From Bipalium vagum (taxonomy: Eukaryota): a stretch of 32,755 nucleotides of DNA. How positions within the stretch are numbered: position 1 is the first letter of the stretch; every line of letters begins with the position of its first letter. The notes beneath the pieces are model-generated. The model was not told the origin of the DNA, did no database searches, and was given only the letters and a program-made list of their open reading frames with translations. Shown here in pieces: positions 2,878 through 28,979 of this stretch. The translations under genes and the position numbers were made by a program. The stretch covers positions 1-32,755 of the forward strand of contig JBBMKC010233833.1 of the NCBI GenBank assembly GCA_037834085.1. The letters run 5' to 3'.

Positions 2878-3007
2878 TACACATACACACGTACAAAAAA
2901 AACAAACAGCTACAGACACATATGCACACACACATACACACACTCACACACGAATGTGTATATATATACATATATATATAAATATATTTATATATATATG
3001 TATATAT
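2878..3007. repeat. Imperfect (CA)n followed by (TA)n microsatellite
   Basis: cacacacatacacacactcacacac ... tatatatatacatatatatata seen directly. Confidence 0.85.
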
Positions 3008-3039
3008 GTTTCAAAGTGAGATGTACACCGTTTAGCTGA

Positions 3040-3231
3040 CCAATAAAAAGCCGTTGTTTGATATAATTAGTCTGTTTCGTATCGGCCCAAACCAGCGGAG
3101 TGGTGGTTGTGTTCAGTGTACAAGATGGTATTTGATTGTCGATTTCTCTCTGGCCATTATTGTTTCTCAAATTCGTTCCATTTCTTTTTATTCTCAATTT
3201 TTCGAATTTGAACATTCAATCATTTCACCAG
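3040..3231 (+). promoter_or_regulatory. Probable promoter and non-coding first exon of the receptor gene (start coordinate approximate)
   Basis: GC-elevated island right after a (CA)/(TA) microsatellite. Contains CCAAT at 3040, Inr-like TTAGT (~3067) and TCAGT (3113-3117), and donor CCAG|gtaatt at 3232. The ATG exon at 5352 has an acceptor, so an upstream exon is required. Confidence 0.5.
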
Positions 3232-5439: not shown

Positions 5440-5817
5440 TATTATTATTTATTCTTCATTACTTTTTTTTTTATTATAATCATTATAAGATTATTTTATT
5501 ATTATATTATTAATATTAATATTATTATATTATTAAAATTAATATAATTATATTATTATATAATCATTATTATGATTATTAAAATGATTTTTTTATAATT
5601 ATTATTATATAATATTTTCTTTTTTTATTTAATATTTTATTGCAATCGTTATTATAACATTATTATTACAATATTATTTTTATTATTATTATGTTATCAT
5701 TATTTTGATTATTACAGTTATTATTTTATAATTATTATTATTTAATCTAATTTTCTTTTCTTTATTTATTATTTAATTTTGATCGTTATTATAACATTAT
5801 TATTACAATATTTTTAA

Positions 5818-5877
<60 letters not shown>

Positions 5878-5960
5878 TTATCATTATTATGATTATAACA
5901 ATTATTATTCTTTTATTATTATCATTATCAGTATTATTATGATAATAAAATTATAATTAT
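5440..5960. repeat. ATT-rich low-complexity tract with a perfect ~(ATT)20 at 5818-5877 and a 31-bp direct duplication
   Basis: The attattatt run is seen directly; atcgttattataacattattattacaatatt occurs at 5645-5675 and 5782-5812. Confidence 0.9.
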
Positions 5961-6549
5961 TATGGGATGAATTATAATTCAATTGAAATAAAAAAATTAA
6001 AAGAAAATATACGCTCGAACTGGTGAGTTGAAAAATCATATTTTTATAATTGAAAGCACACTTGATTTGATTATAATAACTAAATTGCGGCTAATTAAAT
6101 TATTTCCAAAAAAATTTTGATCTATCGAAACTCAAATGGCATTCTAAACTATATGGGAAAAGGCGATATTTTGTGAGATCCAAAAAAACTTTCCCTTTTC
6201 AAGAAAATATTGAATTGGGTTTTAAATTGAAGTTTATTTTAGAAATTAAATCAATTTTTATTTTTACGTTTTCTGTCGAACAAAATATCAAATTAATCAA
6301 CTGGAGTAATTTAAAAATTATTTACTTTTGATTATCTGATCCGTAATGAGATTTGATGTCATCATTATTGAAAAAGACTCACCGCTTCTCTTTTCTTCAT
6401 CTGGAATATTTCAAACATTAAGGGTATATTTTTCCATTATTTATTTTACCAAAACAAAGTTCAAATTTTGTTGGTTTTAAAACAGTCTCTAAATACGTTA
6501 TTTATATTTAATTATAAAAATTAATTTGAGCGTCACTGTACTGAAACCA

Positions 6550-9900: not shown

Positions 9901-10269
9901 TATTTTATCTTACAGACGTATCTTTTCTCTGTCATCATTGTAATAATATACGGAGATAATTGTTCGAAATGATTCTTTTTTAAGAATATATACAGCATTT
10001 TGTATATTTAATGGAACCGATTAAATATATTATTATATCATATGTGGGGTGTGTAATTAGTGAGTATCAGATTGTAAAACCAAGCAAAAAATTTATCAGT
10101 CGATTTTATTTTGTATAAAAATAGGATTTGTGAAATTTTATGTAACCGTTTGATTGTTTTAATATTTTCATTTATTCAGATTTAGTTGCAAAAAATTGAT
10201 TAAATTTCTCAGATTTATGAAAAGTGTCCTATAACATTTGTACAAAATGCTGCGAACTAATAATTTGTC

Positions 10270-10591
10270 AGAGAACAAGGTGAAATTGAATTTTTCAACA
10301 GATGGAGCTCCTGCTTATCATTTGCTTGAAGTTATAAATTTTTAAACAACAAATTTTACGGAAACTAAATTGGGAGAAGTGAACCAATCACCAGAGGTTT
10401 CCTAAATGAATTTCTTTCTTTGGGAATATCTAAATACATGTTTATACAAGGAAGCCAAAGAAGCTAAAAGATCTGACAGATGCATCAAACCAGCTAAAAT
10501 ATCACAAAATATCGTTTATTACAGCATTACTGCTGCGAATTCATGTTGCCATCCACAAAATAAAGTTTTCCAACCCCTTTCGCAGATATAA
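10270..10591 (+). mobile_element. Decayed Tc1/mariner superfamily transposase fragment, rosa/DD41D-like
   Basis: Frameshifted DGAPAYHLLEVINF/LNNKFYGN*IGRSEPI...MNFFLWEYLNTCLY...VFQPL* parallels the family pattern QDGAPAH...LNxxFPGRWIGRGGPIxWPxRSPDLxPLDFFLWGYLKxxVY...HFEHLL. Confidence 0.7.
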
Positions 10592-13800: not shown

Positions 13801-16659
13801 CAAAAATCTAAAGTCGATATGTCATTATGAAAACTTTATTAATTAAAATAATCACCATTGGCAATAACGACCCTTTGTTCTACAAGCTATTATTACTGTC
13901 TTTAATAATTCCGGATCACGGAATGTGACAAAAGAAGAATATTTTTTTAATCAATTACTTCCTAGTAAATTGTCAAATGATAAATACAGATGATAATCTG
14001 TTGAAGATATGTCTGTGAAGTAAGGTTGGTGAAGTAATGTTTCGTAACCCATAAACTAAATAGTCAGATTCTTCGATCAGAAATTCAGTATCAAAACTAA
14101 TTGAATAAATATTATTAATTTTACTTGAATACATAAAGGTAATGAAATGCTACAGTGAAGATTATTTTAAATTAATCCTGAGAAATTGTTTATCAATATA
14201 ACCTTTCAGTTTTGTGCTCATGATATGTCTGTTTATTGAGTACGTTTAATGAAAAACATCATTCGGATAAAAATATTATCATATTAAAAATATTCCTAAA
14301 TAATAAATAGAAAGACATTTCTGGAGAATATAAAGTGACAAAGTTGTCTATCTGTCTGAAAAACAATAGTGAGCGCAGGCACCCCATTGTTGTTGACGAG
14401 CTGAAGTGTATTTGGAAGTGTCTGATAATTCCCAGCTATTCTGATAATATTAAGGTTGCAGTCTAGATCTTGTGTAAAGATCAAACGTTATTAGTCACAT
14501 ATTATCAGCAGCTGCTCTGATCACACAGTGGCTCTCGGATGATTGATATGATAAAATAGATTTCGTCCATCCCTCTGCTTTCTTTCTTACGAATTCATTC
14601 AGATCAGGTGCGTCAGTTAATTGGGCGATGCACCAAAAACACATGGCCCTTTCACTGCATCTTTAATCAGTAACAGACGTCTAATTGATTTCGGGACGAC
14701 CCAGTATTAGTCGATATTATTGTTCATCTTGATGGATTTACCAATCTCTAAGCGGGAATATCGATTTTTGTTTTAATAGATTTCGTATTTTTAATAAAAT
14801 TCACGATAATCTAATATATGCCTAAATTGTCCGAGAGGTTTTTCTCGCACAGTTTTCTATGTGATTTATTTACACTTCGGGAATTTTTCCTCCGCAAATT
14901 TTGGACAATGGAAAATTTTCTTTGAAAAATTATCAATGCCGACTCCGAAAAATCGATACATTACTTATTACAGAATATCTCTCTTGCATTTTTTTTGTGA
15001 TGATCGCAAATTGTTCGCATGTTCGGGCCGGTAATGATAACAGATAATTATTTACAGCCATTATCGCTTTGGGAAAAATATTAAATTTACATTCCTTTTA
15101 CTTCCTTCGTAAAACATTCCATACAAAACCTGATACTTCACCGACATGAAATAGGGATGTTTTCCTTAGTCTTTCTCGAGACTCTCATAGCTAAAGAGAA
15201 TTAGTTGCAATTTATTTCTCATTAATAATATTGTGTTTCGTATTTTGCGTTGCAGTACTGAAAAGATGGTAAGAAATTACAATAATAATAAAAATAATAA
15301 TTATAGTAATAATAATAATTATTATAATTATAATAATAAATTTCTTAGAGTATCATGCGAGTTTTAGATGTTTTCTTATTAGGACGAAAAAAAAGAATTG
15401 GTAAAAAAGAAATTTATTGATGGAAAAAAAGTTTTATATAATGAAGACAGGGATTATGTATTGTGAGGAGAAAAGATTTTGATAATTGTTTTGGGATGCT
15501 TATATCATGTTTCCTTTCCGCATTCAATGAGAGCGACTGGGCCAAGAATATTATTAATTATTTACTAATTATTAATTTTTTTATGTTTTCTAATAAATTT
15601 GAATAATATATTATATAATATAATATATAAAAATATTAAAAAATAATTAAATTTATTGAAAATTTAAAAACTATATTAATTATTATTATTATTATTATTA
15701 ATAGCTGGTTTATCAAAAACTGAATCAGAACCAGGTGACCAACAAAAATATTGAACTTTTTAATTTGGAATGGAAAAAGAAATTAACATTTACACTAGAG
15801 GAAAAAATCGTGAAGAGGTTGTATGAAATGGTTGAGCTGCAAAAACTTTCCTTTGTAAAGGTTATCAAAATAAAAAGATAAGCGTAACTTATGAAAAAGT
15901 AATCATTTTTTTGTATTGCACCGAGAAACGATTGACAAAATCTACAAAGCGCACATTTAAGGTTATTTTGAAAGAGTTGTGAATTTTATTTAAACAGGGA
16001 AATTATTCTCAACTTTGTTTAAAATAAATATATAATAAAATTAAAAACAATTTTAAAAATTTTAAATCAAAACCATCTGAGACCAAAAAGTCTAATTAGT
16101 CTTGGTGGAGTAATTATTTCTTCGTAAAATTAATTTTTTATAATTTTGATTAATTGTTTAAATGAATAGATAATTATTTAATTATTTCTACGTATTGCTT
16201 AAAATGAGAGAAGAAATATAAAATATTGAATATATAATAAATTGTCAAAAAACTAAAGTACTATATAATCGATAAATATATCGTAAATAATATCAATTAA
16301 AAAATGAATTTCACAGTTAATTCGTAATTTTTATTTATGATAATATTTTTAATTATTTCAACGAATTGTTAAGTAAGGTATATATTTAATAATAATTATA
16401 ATATAAATTAAAAATAATAATAAATTTACCCCAACTAGACTGCAAAATTAATTTTGGTATTGAATTTCAATTGTGAGATTTGTTTAATCAATTCATTATG
16501 AAAATTAACAGACTTTAAAATGTTGATATATATAAGAAAATATTTATTTAATTATGTAAAAAGGAGACAAAATTATTTAGAGAATAAACGAATATTTACT
16601 CATTTATGGAATAATTTCCTTTGTAAAAACACTACTTGTTCCTATATCGATTATCTGAT

Positions 16660-16885
16660 AATAATTTAATAATATTAATAATAATAAAATATAAATAATA
16701 ATAAAATATAAATATAATAATAATATAATATAAATATATTAATAATTTTTATAATATAATAACAATATAAGAATATAATAGTAATGTAATATTATAAATA
16801 TAATATAATAATATAATGATAATATTATAATATTATAATATGATAGTAATATAATATTATAAATATAACATAATAACGATATAAT

Positions 16886-16917
<32 letters not shown>

Positions 16918-16990
16918 CATTTTCATTTTCATTTTCATATTTATATTCATATTAATAATAATAGTAATAGTAATAATAATAATTTTTTAA
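16660..16990. repeat. AAT/TAA-rich low-complexity tract
   Basis: Near-pure A/T degenerate (AAT)n with (ttttca)3 at ~16920-16937. Confidence 0.85.
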
Positions 16991-18345
16991 TATTTTTTAT
17001 ATAATTATTGTATAATATTTTATCAATGTAATCACATTAATCAATATGAATATTCATTGAAAGATTTAGAGAGTTAAATGTGGATTTAAAGTCTTTTCAG
17101 GTGTATTAGAAAGTGTTTGTGATAAATCAAGGAAAATTATATTAAATATTAAATTGCTGGCAAAAATATTATTTTGCTATTATTTAATTGATTCACTGAA
17201 ACTGCAAGGTGAAAACTGGCTGATAGGAGGTCTAAAGGATAATCTATGTTGATAATCAACAATACAAGTTTCTTTTAATTAGGGTAAGTTTCAATTGATC
17301 AGAGACCTTTTGACAATGATGATCCATGTTCTTCTTTGTAAAACGTTACATTATTCTATGTTATAATGAAGATCTTTTATGAATTAATATTGATGGAAAA
17401 GTTTGATAAAATAGATTCTGGAAAAATTCATATCACTTTTTTGATCTTCGTTAAAGATGTATGCGGTCGACAAAGACTACCTTAAAAAAACAATATTACC
17501 ATTGAAGGGTTAAACCCTATGCTATGTTAATCTGTTTCTTCTTTATAAAATATATTGCAAGTCAAAATATAAATCTTAAAATTCTGTGATAAGAAAATTG
17601 TATCGATTGTTTAAATTGAACTTTGTCTTTTTAAACAAACTATTTAAATAAATAATTTTTAGTATATTATTTAAACGTTTTCTTAGGTATCTCTTATTCA
17701 AAAAAATATAAAAGAGCAATTATTTTATTCTAAAAAATTAAAGTTTTACTTCATCCTTTTCTTATTTCTATTTTGTCTCATTTTAAAGTGATAAATATTT
17801 GTGGCAATTAATATTCAACAAACAACCATTGAAGATCTGTCAATCCAGCATTTTTGCAATTAATCGTTAATAGGAAATTAAAATTATGAAATTAATTTCT
17901 AATTAATTCTTAATAAATTAATTAGTCTTTAATTAAATTAATAACAGTTACCAATATTGGTCATTGGAAAATATTTGATTGATAATCCATAAATCATATG
18001 AACCGTGGGGCCATTCTTTTAAATCCCTCAAAAAATAATAATTTTAGATTGGTATAAAAATACTAATGGGTCATTTTTTTAATATACATTTCAAGAAAAA
18101 ATCATTAATCAAAGTTACAATCATAAATCTCAAAATAATTTTTTAATTGGATATTAATATAATTAATAAATATTAAAAATATATTATATATATATTGTAT
18201 TATAACCTTTGTTAATTTACTCATAAATAATTCATATATAATAAATATAAATAAATAATTCACGTATTAAAATTTCGGGAAAATTAAAAAATATTTTTAA
18301 AAAATTCCATTGATATTTTTATTTATTAATTTTATTTAATTTTAG

Positions 18346-18391
18346 TATATATATTTCTTGTCAATCAATCAATCAATGGACTACGTCCTGA
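18346..18391 (+). CDS. Coding exon 2 (46 nt, second half of signal peptide) of the Ig-domain receptor gene
   Basis: Acceptor tttatttaattttag and perfect donor gtaagt at 18392. Phase 1 to phase 2, reading (V)YIFLVNQSINGLRP(E). The joined product MLECLRISVIIVYIFLVNQSING-LRPE has a hydrophobic core and a small residue at a plausible cleavage site. Confidence 0.78.
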
Positions 18392-19239
18392 GTAAGTACT
18401 TTTTTTATTGAATATAATAAATAATGGAAAATGTGAAGATAATAATAATGTCATTGGTATTATTTAATTTCATAAATAAATTTGATAATTTAAAAATTTC
18501 ACATTAACAAATAAATAATATATTATTTTTTAAACTAAAAATTAATTTTCAGAAAAAATCTTTCTAAAAAAACCCGTTAAAATAACCATTACGAAATTAT
18601 CATACTGATTATGTATACATAAAGAAAAATATCTCGCTTCACTGCAGTTATCATAATAATTATTTTAAATATTTATTTATATTTCATGTTCGTTCATTTT
18701 TCCAAATATTTTAGTTCATATTTCTATTTACTATGTTGAAAAAATTAAGCCCGTTTCCAGATTCTGGATAGACTTATTAATTACAGATTATTTTTCAAAG
18801 ATTTTCTTTCATATATATATTTTTTCTTTTACTTATTTTTGGGTTGATAAGATTATAAGTGGAAAAGTGGCTTTTTGGATACCTATCTCTGGCTGGTGAC
18901 GCCAAAAAGGGCAGATAAAATAAATAATTCAGAAGAATTTCAATTTTGTAATTTTTCTCCATTTTAATTTAACTTTATCTATAAATGTAATATTTTTTGA
19001 TATTATATAAGAAACTAAATTAAAGTAATAAATTTTTCATAAAATTAATCTATAAAAATCTATATTATTGAAATACAATTTGGCGGGAGTTGTTAGATTA
19101 TTATTTGGATTATTTAAACAAATGCTAAAAAAGGACTAAAGTTATGCATACACCATATATATAAATAAATTCAGTGAACAATAATCTTTTATTTTTAAAA
19201 TACTTTTAAAAAACATTTTTGAACAAACAAAATTTTATC

Positions 19240-19307
19240 TATAATACTATCTTGAAACATGTTTCGATCTTTTCATTCAGATCTTCTTCAGTCAACTTTA
19301 TATTATA
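19240..19307 (-). ncRNA. Minimal type I hammerhead ribozyme (Penelope-like element type)
   Basis: The minus strand 19295-19252 reads UUGA-CUGAAGA-A-GAUC-UGAAUGAAAA-GAUC-GAA-ACAUGU-U-UCAA. Both catalytic boxes are present, stem II is GAUC/GAUC, stem III is the palindromic ACAUGU, and stem I is UUGA/UCAA extended by UAUAAUA/UAUUAUA beyond a 5x5 internal loop. Confidence 0.78.
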
Positions 19308-21025
19308 TACATAAAATTGTATTTAAAACAAATTAGAAAATTTGACAATGTATGAAAAACATGAAGGGAAATTGCGTAAAGGGAAATATGTCAATTTCGA
19401 TATTAATGGGAAAAGATTTCTCTTGGTAAATTAATTAGATTTATTAACGAAGATCTGGTGTAAATGGATCTTGCAAGCAATTAATATTTGTTAAAATTAT
19501 TACAAATTCTAAGTTGTAAATCCTCGTTATTGATACCATATTTCATATGGAAAACACTTGTTTGGAATGCTTGTTCAAAGCAAAAATCAAATATGTCAAT
19601 CACTGATAATTTGGCATGGCACTATTGATTAATGGTCTAAGAATTGGGGAATTTTACATGGAACCCATTGAAATACTCTGGTTTGCATTTGCCAATTACA
19701 AAAGTGGTCGTTCCTTTGTGAATGGACTCCCCGTTTTTTTTCTTGACTTAATTTCATAAATTATTGAAACTTCATTCAATGATTCCAACTATCATTTATC
19801 TCATACATATTTGCATGAAAGCAATTAGTAGACTTTGGCTCGCGCTTGACTAATTATGCAAATGAAAAATAAAAATGAACCAATTCCATCCTGCATTCTT
19901 AGCCCTGGTCGTCTTGGTAGTTGTACCAAGGTACTGTGGTTGGTGCTATTCTGTCAAATATTACTACCCTTTTCGTGGTGATATAATTGATTTGATTTGA
20001 TTTGAGAATTAATGGTGATTTCGGGAAATTAGCGTCAAAATCACTTGGGACGCAATCTGGTATTGTTTTCTACAATAAGAACAAAATTATTGAACATAAG
20101 GCGTATGATAAAGAGATAAGATATAAAATCCCGCTGTTTATTATTCACTATCAATATGTTTCCGGGGAAATATCAATTATACCTATCCTATTAAGAAGTC
20201 TCCTAGTCATCATTGCGTCATTTTTGCCATATTTTTCGTAACACATTTAGATTAAATAGCACAGTTCCAGTGACATAAACCATCTGTGATTACGATGTTT
20301 GTGAACCAAATATGTTACTTATAAAACTACTTAGGGGTTGCTGTAAAGGATATGATGACACAGTGGCCAATATATTTCTCAATCCGTGCACATTGATGGA
20401 TTATCATTAAATTATTAAACAATTGTGAAACGATAAATTTCTTTCTTTTTCCATTTTTGAAAAAAATTAAATATTCAATATTTGGAAAATAATGTTACTC
20501 CATTTATTCTTAAATCTCATTTTTTTTAAAAAAATAGAAAAAAATAATGAGAATAAATATTCATGCAAAAAGATGGTAATTAATTGTATATGACTGGTAA
20601 AAAATTAATAAATAATGACAATAAAAATAATAAGTGATTTATTGACTTTGTTTCACAGAAATTTAATTTTAAAATATTTTTCATTTTTCTATTGAAAAAT
20701 AAAATTTTCTTAATATTGATGTGGAAATTATTTTTTAAAAAAATTTTTTGTTAATTATTTTTAATTGGAAGAATTTAAAAGAAAGATTTTGAAATCGAAT
20801 TTATTTTGTTTGTTTAAAAAATAAAATACGTTCCTCCTGAGTCTTAAAAAAACGTTCTCTTTTTTCTTCAAAGTATTTATAATAATCAATGAAAAAATTA
20901 AAAGGAAAAATAAAATATTATCATAATAAATTTGAATAAAATTTCAAAATTTAGAATAATTGAAATAATTTAATTTTTTAATTTTAAATTACTTAAACTT
21001 TCATGATGGTTTTTATTATTTTAAT

Positions 21026-21162
21026 NNNNNNNNNNNNNNNNNNNNNNNNNNNNNNNNNNNNNNNNNNNNNNNNNNNNNNNNNNNNNNNNNNNNNNNNNNN
21101 NNNNNNNNNNNNNNNNNNNNNNNNNNNNNNNNNNNNNNNNNNNNNNNNNNNNNNNNNNNNNN
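21026..21162. other. Assembly gap (137 N) within an intron
   Basis: Run of n characters. Exon phases on either side (18391 to 21577) are compatible. Confidence 0.98.
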
Positions 21163-21576
21163 TATTTCTGCTAATGTAAATCAAGGTATTTAATCAAAAA
21201 ATTATTTAATTATTTAATTTTCAATTGAAATATGTTGTTTTAATCGAAGTTTTCTGTAATATTTTTTGACATCTTTTATCAAATAGACCGCGTTGAGCTA
21301 TATTCCTTTATCGCAATTATTTTTCATCGATTATATGATAATGATTGCCTGACAATATTTCACATAAATTTTTATTAACTTTATCATTAATAAATATCTA
21401 ATATTAAATAATAAAATTGATAAAAATCGACTTTTTACAATGACAATTTAAAGGTAAATAAAAAATAAAAAAAACTCAGTCCACAGTAAAATATTAATAA
21501 TATTTTAAAATAAAATATAACCAATGGAATCTATAGAAAATTAATCTGGGCATTAATATTTTTCTTTCTTTTTCAG

Positions 21577-21620
21577 AATTAAAAAACCAACTAATTCCCA
21601 ATTGCTACCCCGTTCTGAAG
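21577..21620 (+). CDS. Coding exon 3 (44 nt, N-terminal linker) of the Ig-domain receptor gene
   Basis: Strong acceptor tttttctttctttttcag and donor GAAG|gtaatt. Phase 2 to phase 1, reading (E)IKKPTNSQLLPRSE(G). Phases match both neighbouring exons. Confidence 0.8.
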
Positions 21621-24327: not shown

Positions 24328-24505
24328 GCTTTATTAAATTGAATATAAATCTGAAAAACGTCACTGCCCACGTGGGGAAAAAGGCGTCGTTCTTTTGTGA
24401 TATCAGCGGAAAACCGATGCCTCAAATATCGTGGAAAAAAGGTCTGCTGCCTTTAACCGATATCAGCCTGAAGATTAAAATACGACACCGGCTATGGGGC
24501 AGTGT
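24328..24505 (+). CDS. Coding exon 4: N-terminal part of an I-set Ig domain, Ror-like
   Basis: Acceptor ttattcag and donor gtaaat at 24506. Reads (G)FIKLNINLKNVTAHVGKKASFFCDISGKPMPQISWKKGLLPLTDISLKIKIRHRLWGS(V), with the B-strand Cys, GxPxPxIxW motif and NVT sequon. WGSxLxI recalls the YGSRLRI motif of the Ror1/2 Ig domain. Locally GC-rich. Confidence 0.92.
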
Positions 24506-24560
24506 GTAAATACAGTCTCTTGTTGTGAGTGCCGTTGTCAAATGACGTCTTTTTTTTCAG

Positions 24561-24670
24561 ATTGAAAATCGAAGATCTTGACTTTAGCGACGAAGGATTC
24601 TATGTCTGCCATGCAGAAAACATCCATGGCGCCATCAATACGTCAGCTTATTTGAAAGTAATCAAGCAAC
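24561..24670 (+). CDS. Coding exon 5: C-terminal part of the I-set Ig domain
   Basis: Follows a 55-nt GT-AG intron (24506-24560, ending ttttttttcag). Reads LKIEDLDFSDEGFYVCHAENIHGAINTSAYLKVIKQ, containing the canonical DxGxYxCxAxN motif. Donor gtaagt at 24671 is phase 1, typical of Ig module boundaries. Confidence 0.93.
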
Positions 24671-27694: not shown

Positions 27695-28979
27695 TAAACT
27701 GTGTTTATAAATCGTTTATGAATTTTACTTAATATCAGGATTTTAATTAAAAAAATGGTAGTTTCGGAGATATGTACAAATGCGTTCGAAGAATTCCGAG
27801 AAAATTTCATTTAAAAATGCACGATAATTGAATCTCTTTTGAATAGATTTATTGGAATTTCATTGATTAGCTTTTAAATTTTATTATTTAAAGAGATATC
27901 ATTGTTTAAGTAATCGTATAAAAATCAACCAACTGTGTCAATTATCAGTATTTGAAGATCATCAGATTTGTATTAAATTTTATCAGTGGGACAATATTTT
28001 ATGTTCCAGAGCACTGAAAATAATGAAGAAGTAAGGATCCCAAACATGCATTCATCTATCGTACGATGTCTTTATAGAAGGCAAAGAGTTCGTGGTAGAC
28101 AACCAACAATCCGGAACATCATCCACATCAACAGACGATGGAAACGTAGAAAAAGATATCCGGTGCAAAATTATATCGGGTTACAATGCGAGATAGAGAG
28201 AGAGATCTAAAAAATTGGAATGTTAATTAGATTTTGCCAATCGATTTTGAAATACAGATGGTAAATAAAGCACTGCATCTCGACTTGAACCGAAGAATTT
28301 TAATTTTTTGCAAAAGCATTAAAATGCTCTTCTCGTTCAAGAAAAAATGTGGAAAAATCTTGTTGGAAAACACTATTAACGGTGATGAGATATGGGTATA
28401 TCAGTATCATGCAGAAACAAGGTGAGAACCAAGTTAATGGCTTGAAAAAATTAGCAGAAATCTAATTTTTCATTAAACCAATTCCAACATCAAGATCTTA
28501 CAAATCATTTCTTGTGAATGTTGTCAAACAGTAAATTATGAATATCACTTGCAAGTCATGTGTTGTTTGAGAGAAGAAGCTCTTAAAAGAATACCGAATT
28601 TTTGGGTAAACAACTAATTGATTTTGCATCACATTAATGCAGTATCTCATGCTACCTTCATTAGTAAATTTTTGGCCAAACATCAAACTAAGAACATTCT
28701 TCAAGCACCATATTCACCTGATATGTATCCGTGTGACTTCTTCATTTTCTCTCGGTTGACTTCAACACTTAGTAGTCATCATATTAAGTCAGTAGAACAG
28801 ATTCAAGACAATTTTATACAGGACCTGATGATTATTTCGGAAACAGAATATAAAAAACGTTTCGATGATTGGAAGAAATGATAATATATACTTGGAAGGA
28901 GAGACCATAAGTTTTGATAATTAAATAAATATTTTGTGTTTTATTTGAGAGTTGTCAAAACTTTTTCATCACAGTATTA
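27695..28979 (+). mobile_element. Degenerate mariner (DD34D) DNA transposon with transposase pseudogene at ~27950-28905; left boundary approximate
   Basis: Ordered mariner motifs across frameshifts and stops: EDHQICIKFY, FIEGKEFVVDNQQSGTSSTSTDDGNVEK, INGDEIWVYQYHAETR*, TVNYEYHLQVMCCLREEALKRIPNFWVNN*, ILHHINA (second Asp lost), APYSPDMYPCDFFIF, RFDDWKK and YLEGE. TIR-like end ctttttcatcacagtatta at ~28961-28979, with a weak counterpart taaactgtg at ~27695. Confidence 0.92.

Follow-up and report, generated by a model that had tools for sequence, protein, structure and literature searches.

The hammerhead motif on the minus strand of the window (the whole 32,755-nucleotide stretch of Bipalium vagum DNA that was analyzed) very probably marks an ordinary 5'-truncated end of a Penelope-like element (PLE), which carries a standard minimal hammerhead and is likely inert. 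By itself this copy matters little, being one more truncated PLE end (Table 1). Its family, however, has the likely start codon of the element's open reading frame (ORF) placed within the palindrome through which two ribozymes would pair. An overlap between a hammerhead and an ORF start is in general already known from the Poseidon element of Anolis carolinensis (PAc). The position of the start codon in the palindrome characterizes the family rather than this single copy.

Table 1. Coordinates of features in the window
Feature	Position	Strand	Basis
5'-truncated terminal fragment (pLTR end) of PLE: hammerhead and about the first 31 ORF codons	19168-19301	-	family homology
TA run just past the 3' end of the element; likely insertion target	19155-19163	.	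sequence; copy survey
Helix I, 4 bp	19295-19292 with 19255-19252	-	sequence reading
Core CUGAAGA	19291-19285	-	sequence reading
Extra A (between 9 and 10.1)	19284	-	sequence reading
Helix II, 5 bp, G10.1-C11.1, 8-nt loop	19283-19279 with 19270-19266	-	sequence reading
GAAA	19265-19262	-	sequence reading
Palindrome ACAUGU (loop 3; would make helix III between two ribozymes)	19262-19257	-	sequence and folding
U17, giving GUU triplet; predicted cut after 19256	19256	-	sequence reading
5' arm of the distal part of helix I, partner 19240-19247; in part host flank, unconserved across subfamilies	19300-19307	-	
ATG within palindrome; opens element ORF in sister copies	19260-19258	-	frame analysis
ORF N-terminus remnant; 21 codons open here, frame broken by 5 deleted bases	19173-19260	-	frame analysis
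Candidate small upstream exons 18376-18391, 19903-19930 or 19875-19930, 21577-21620	18376-21620	+	by eye, phase-compatible with Ig exons
Ig I-set domain, two exon-like pieces (24328-24505, 24561-24670), host gene	24328-24670	+	domain match

Hammerhead motif and its relatives in the genome

We read the motif from the sequence as a type I minimal hammerhead at 19252-19295, with a predicted cut at 19256/19255. The initial annotation had reported a minimal hammerhead with its core, a GUU triplet and one extra A on this strand, present as a single copy in the window. Both observations hold: a hammerhead descriptor scan returned one match in the window, and any match at all was obtained in 6 of 500 dinucleotide shuffles. 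The segment 19230-19320 folds at -14.6 kcal/mol (z = -2.22; 4 of 200 shuffles were as good). Within the 68-mer, helices I and II form and the pair probability of helix III in the monomer is 0.002, in agreement with the earlier description of a PLE-type hammerhead whose stem III is not formed in the monomer. Helix I reaches a probability of 0.7-0.9 in the 68-mer versus 0.07-0.16 in the 44-mer, the pairing of the flank extending this helix; in a 161-nt context it is displaced by another fold. The distal 8-bp pairing itself is at the level expected by chance for an AT-rich flank (p = 0.21). The claim that all stems are intact stands for the 4-bp helix I and the 5-bp helix II, and is not confirmed for this distal part, which lies partly in the flank. 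An origin of the 5' flank from an inverted tail was considered and rejected (p = 0.21; p < 0.05 in 3 of 52 copies). Folding energies are -4.6 kcal/mol for the ACAUGU duplex, -25.2 kcal/mol for the cleavage-type dimer, -21.2 kcal/mol for two monomers and -31.4 kcal/mol for the best cofold, which is a non-catalytic fold.

A 101-base query against the 441-Mb assembly gave 862 first-look candidates; 40 of 40 scored, self included, reached E<=2.7e-22. A 34-place core pattern had 152 exact genomic matches, many of which sit at contig ends, and none in the control, and a generic hammerhead pattern that admits related families had 748 genomic matches versus 3 in the reversed control. Covariation was examined in 20 sequences, namely the window copy and 19 of 20 sequences hand-picked for variety (one fell outside the regular expression). 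Pair 3 of helix II is U-A in three of them, A-U in 16 and G-U in one; pair 4 of helix I is U-A in three, A-U in ten and unpaired in seven, these helix changes being between families and so representing few independent events. Hammerhead positions 7 and 9.1 vary freely, U17 is present in 16/20 sequences, and the G10.1-C11.1 pair is found in 20/20, where it is forced by the search pattern together with the extra nucleotide between 9 and 10.1. The survey of copy number and stem covariation that the initial annotation had proposed thus yielded hundreds of copies and compensatory pairs in helices I and II. In a comparison with the contig set, depth summed to ~64,700 over the ribozyme versus ~20-26 on the flank, a figure that is not a copy number.

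The Rfam scan of the window, by which the hammerhead was also to be checked, turned out otherwise: it reported no hammerhead family at E<=1, and its six matches are all miRNA or scaRNA models on the TA/CA repeat at 2908-3036. This result is what would be expected if the motif were a chance match in AT-rich DNA. Against such a match stand the low yield from shuffled sequence (6/500), the 748 genomic matches versus 3 in the reversed control and the compensatory pairs across families, and we regard its probability as negligible. At the level of sequence the hammerhead motif is genuine, and a chance match is refuted.

Most of the first 100 listed of the 748 matches belong to other hammerhead families with a different helix II (L121-L140). 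The CATG loop is kept in nearly all of those listed (97 of the 100, counted by eye), and the ATG-led frames start alike; the shared loop and frame start suggest a radiation of related PLEs. In three loci (L002, L024, L026) copies of the same element end adjoin long host ORFs, two of which we take to be GPCR-like and one proteasome-subunit-like.

Minimal hammerheads have been described in the pLTRs of metazoan PLEs (Cervera and De la Pena 2014, PMC4209133). In the parts of that work considered here, they share with the present motif the type I architecture, CUGANGA with one extra base, G10.1-C11.1, a short helix I and a palindromic loop 3, and U17 is common in the published alignment. The same source describes the motifs as mostly solo and derived from truncated PLEs, with some inverted pairs 100-700 bp apart, and reports no cleavage for a single motif and weak cleavage for dimers. 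The present case differs in that the families are new, come from an AT-rich animal genome and have CAUG in loop 3 with a functional-looking ATG; the term 'start codon' was not found in the supplement text of that paper. With its core, extra nucleotide, unstable palindromic helix III and covariation, the motif is a type I minimal hammerhead of the metazoan-PLE kind, with predicted self-cleavage.

Parent element and the likely start codon in the palindrome

Evidence on the parent element comes from sister loci outside the window, which carry reverse transcriptase (RT; PF00078, E 2e-07 and 5.5e-10) and a GIY-YIG endonuclease (EN; PF01541, E 6.9e-05). Of 1237 candidates from a protein search, 150 were scored and yielded 151 RT matches. 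In L004, L011, L042, L046 and L048 the hammerhead is found downstream of RT and shares its strand; in L016 and L049 it is inverted relative to RT. The order in L048 is RT, EN, an AT-rich UTR of ~200 nt, the hammerhead, ~100 nt and a TA run; an overlap of the hammerhead with the C-terminus of EN was considered and rejected, as ~200 nt separate the two. The hammerhead and ORF start recur both after EN and before the ORF in sister copies, as in a pLTR. An intact full-length element was not found in the fragmented assembly, and the layout of the parent was assembled from overlapping broken copies. By the features found in sister loci, the parent is an endonuclease-bearing PLE with RT and, at the C-terminus, a GIY-YIG domain. 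Candidate clades are Penelope/Poseidon and Neptune/Nematis. Naiad and Chlamys are excluded because these PLEs, as described in passages of PMC8557442, have an N-terminal EN and no canonical hammerheads.

Rearranged copies were also observed. Inverted pieces occur in L009 (96-392), L074 and L091, with element ends inverted beside the 5' junction, and L080 contains oppositely oriented ends that come from two different families. On the minus strand of L146 (1079-1647) two hammerheads of different subfamilies lie in direct order 568 nt apart and enclose the start of an ORF that is joined in frame to part of an endonuclease, with 115 aa open. This locus is an internally deleted mini-element, in which a dimer could form in cis.

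The sequence that follows the hammerhead, referred to as its tail, forms the beginning of the ORF of the element, since the ATG-led frame continues into that ORF. The first 20 codons from the ATG lack a stop in 51 of 74 copies, and the mean number of stops per 32 codons is 1.19 in the ATG frame versus 2.84 and 3.66 in the other two. Subfamilies differ in the ATG frame by substitutions and by a frame-keeping 3-base insertion. In read-through copies the frame is open for 71 aa (L071) and 96 aa (L142), in both cases to the contig end, and for 157 aa (L150). Five contigs (L149, L165, L171, L173 and L174) encode the N-terminal peptide on the RT strand, at a distance of ~1.0-1.1 kb upstream of RT, and in L173 a decayed hammerhead directly precedes the ATG. 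We infer that the ATG of the palindrome is used in translation. The predicted cut then separates the second base of codon 2 from the third, with five bases of the ORF preceding it. That U17 is constrained by codon 2 is only a suggestion, as published PLE hammerheads often have U17 too. Lunse et al. may already describe AUG-containing palindromes.

A start codon within the dimer palindrome is absent from the literature searched (including PMC6765202, passages of PMC8557442 and the supplement of PMC4209133), where the overlap in PAc was the only one found. Passages from Frangieh et al. 2024 (PMC11167929) show that PAc shares with our family an RT with a C-terminal GIY-YIG domain, a hammerhead that overlaps the ORF start and is cut downstream of the start codon, two insertion-end/RT start sites within the ORF start, an optional tail and AT-rich targets. 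In PAc, however, stem II is where the ORF begins, with the cut 26 nt downstream of the start codon, whereas in our family the loop-3 palindrome contains the ATG; end zones are at about +75 and +100 here, and an RT start of PAc is given at +111-118. The same passages report that the PAc ribozyme needed protein for cleavage and that PAc insertion in vitro did not require cleavage. The EN+ PLE clades, in the portions of Craig et al. 2021 (PMC8557442) considered, share with our family 5' truncation, partial tandems, adjacent inverted copies, a tail, two cysteines between GIY and YIG, and a microsatellite bias.

According to the cited part of PMC8557442, it is still unclear what PLE hammerheads do. 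One possible, if rather doubtful, role is that the AUG in the dimerization palindrome (A-C-AUG-U) acts as a copy-number-sensing translational off-switch that limits the element's own protein. If so, the pairing of two ribozymes would bury both AUGs, cleavage in codon 2 would detach the AUG from the ORF, and the slow GUU triplet would be imposed by codon 2 (Phe/Tyr/Ser). An AUG at the dimer interface with a cut in codon 2 would offer a compact reporter system for translation control versus template processing.

Insertion, divergence and possible roles of the window copy

The window copy is ~135 bp long, with its 5' limit at 19301-19304 and its 3' limit at 19168-19173, as judged from homology to the family. 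Among 75 anchored copies the 5' junctions are scattered, at distances between 1 and 200+ nt upstream of helix I. A pile-up of 5' ends at helix I was considered and rejected, the excess being slight (few copies with a junction <=11 nt away) in a query-biased set. Counted from the ATG, 3' ends fall at +70-79 in 13 of 73 copies and at +90-109 in 35 of 73; that of the window copy is at +93. Of 30 copies, 27 have a TA run <=30 nt from the terminal motif (background 5.7%), and 12 of 52 have one at the 5' junction (background 3.1%). A clear target-site duplication was not identified; both flanks are TA-rich, with a loose 12/14 likeness seen by eye. In the contig set, which is possibly the window's own source, none of the joints listed skips the insertion, so there is no empty allele among them.

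These features match the published behavior of PLEs, which are truncated at the 5' end, may carry a tail, insert at AT-rich targets and begin reverse transcription internally (PMC8557442, PMC11167929). The element would have inserted at a TA-rich site, likely by target-primed reverse transcription that began inside the ORF, ~95-105 nt past the ATG, in the distal one of the two start zones, and stopped just beyond helix I. The template RNA was presumably uncut at the hammerhead, since the window copy spans the cut site. In an active element, tandem transcripts would allow two hammerheads to pair via the palindrome, whereas a lone copy without helix III would need pairing to a second copy, or help from protein, in order to cleave. 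The window copy, alone and antisense to nearby exons, is likely inert.

The initial annotation had left open selective retention, a retrozyme-like family and chance, and had taken the neighboring element sequence to be far more eroded than the ribozyme. Upstream of 19301-19304, however, element sequence is absent rather than eroded, and downstream the difference is small: relative to 16 GUA-type copies there are 2 substitutions in 48 ribozyme positions and 5 in 84 tail positions (Fisher p = 0.50), and relative to all other copies 2/48 and 8/84 (p = 0.22), with 5 deleted bases in the tail and none in the ribozyme. The core is intact in 7 of 30 copies chosen by tail alone (35 were chosen, 5 of them cut by contig ends). 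It is intact in none of the 8 uncut copies chosen by the tail pattern of the window's subfamily (of 9 in addition to the window copy, one is cut by a contig end). This result leans toward the annotation's idea of retention; at an expected rate near 0.2 it is not decisive, and the window copy had been flagged for being intact. Under neutrality, the estimated probability that a copy remains intact is 0.19-0.49 with 31-13 constrained sites, and a larger gap between ribozyme and tail is seen in 14 of 44 other copies, many of which were chosen by ribozyme likeness. Intactness like that of the window copy would be expected by chance in about one copy in four or five. The annotation had named divergence like that of ordinary Penelope copies as evidence against special retention; the divergence found is ordinary, so selective retention is unsupported (2/48 versus 5/84; 7/30 intact), and among the three options the evidence favors chance.

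It seems highly improbable that selection keeps this copy as a host cis-element that cuts or ends an antisense transcript of the Ig-domain gene. Such a role could be read from a core that is intact although all 8 uncut copies with the nearest tails have lost theirs, and from flank pairing that raises the probability of helix I to 0.7-0.9 in the 68-mer. The same flank pairing is, however, at chance level (p = 0.21), there is no excess conservation (p = 0.50 and 0.22), a larger ribozyme-tail gap is found in 14 of 44 other copies (many of them ribozyme-picked), and the window contains no partner hammerhead. The window copy also has U17 versus A in the 16-copy comparison set (which is defined by A17) and hence a slower triplet, GUC and GUA being the faster ones (PMC3138052). 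Termination of an antisense transcript would need transcription plus a partner copy. As a multi-copy sequence with no excess conservation, the motif does not appear to qualify as an exapted intronic hammerhead.

Equally improbable is the reading of the unit as a non-autonomous family of the retrozyme or SINE kind, propagated as a short hammerhead RNA with a fixed length. Most copies are indeed short with no RT nearby, matches often lie at contig ends, where short-read collapse could hide tandem arrays, and a few copies in the query-biased set have a common 5' junction <=11 nt from helix I. The 5' ends are nevertheless scattered and not fixed, longer copies reach EN and RT in the backward direction and the ORF in the forward direction, and the unit is coding. 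No head-to-tail hammerhead repeats were found among 75 anchored copies from 120 loci; one locus among the 75 has two hammerheads, and that pair is inverted. The sole direct pair, that of L146 (568 nt), encloses ORF pieces. Non-LTR retrozymes, in the cited part of bioRxiv 10.64898/2026.07.22.740005, have a type I hammerhead related to PLE pLTRs, as here, but are defined by two or more consecutive tandem units that each carry a hammerhead, and no tandem units were seen in our 75 copies. Scattered 5' truncations, descent from an ORF with RT and EN and the lack of direct tandems in these copies leave the retrozyme-like option unsupported, and the 5'-truncated PLE end remains the preferred reading.

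Host gene context and other features of the window

The Ig piece matches generic Ig I-set proteins (Robo1, DCC) in PDB, and no homologue of the host gene was found among longer proteins at E<=0.001. The gene may resemble those of ROR-type receptors; no cysteine-rich receptor exon was recognized downstream. Two candidate exon models place the insertion either in an intron at 18392-19902 or ~570 bp upstream of a start at 19875. The initial annotation had placed the ribozyme antisense within an intron of a receptor gene: it is antisense to the Ig-domain exons, and the receptor identity and the intron are only plausible given the two models. An open stretch at 3036-3231 (plus strand), which follows a CA/TA repeat, contains a hydrophobic signal-peptide-like segment and ends in a good splice donor; it is possibly an early exon of the Ig-domain gene, without an in-frame ATG.

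Pieces at 28231-28940 (plus strand) are presumably from a decayed mariner-like transposase, with no Pfam match at E<=0.01 for 28618-28878, and 10240-10590 (plus strand), which had no Pfam match, is presumably a short Tc1/mariner-like remnant. Simple repeats, low-complexity ATT/AAT and AT-rich, occupy 5490-5990, 15260-15350 and 16650-17010.
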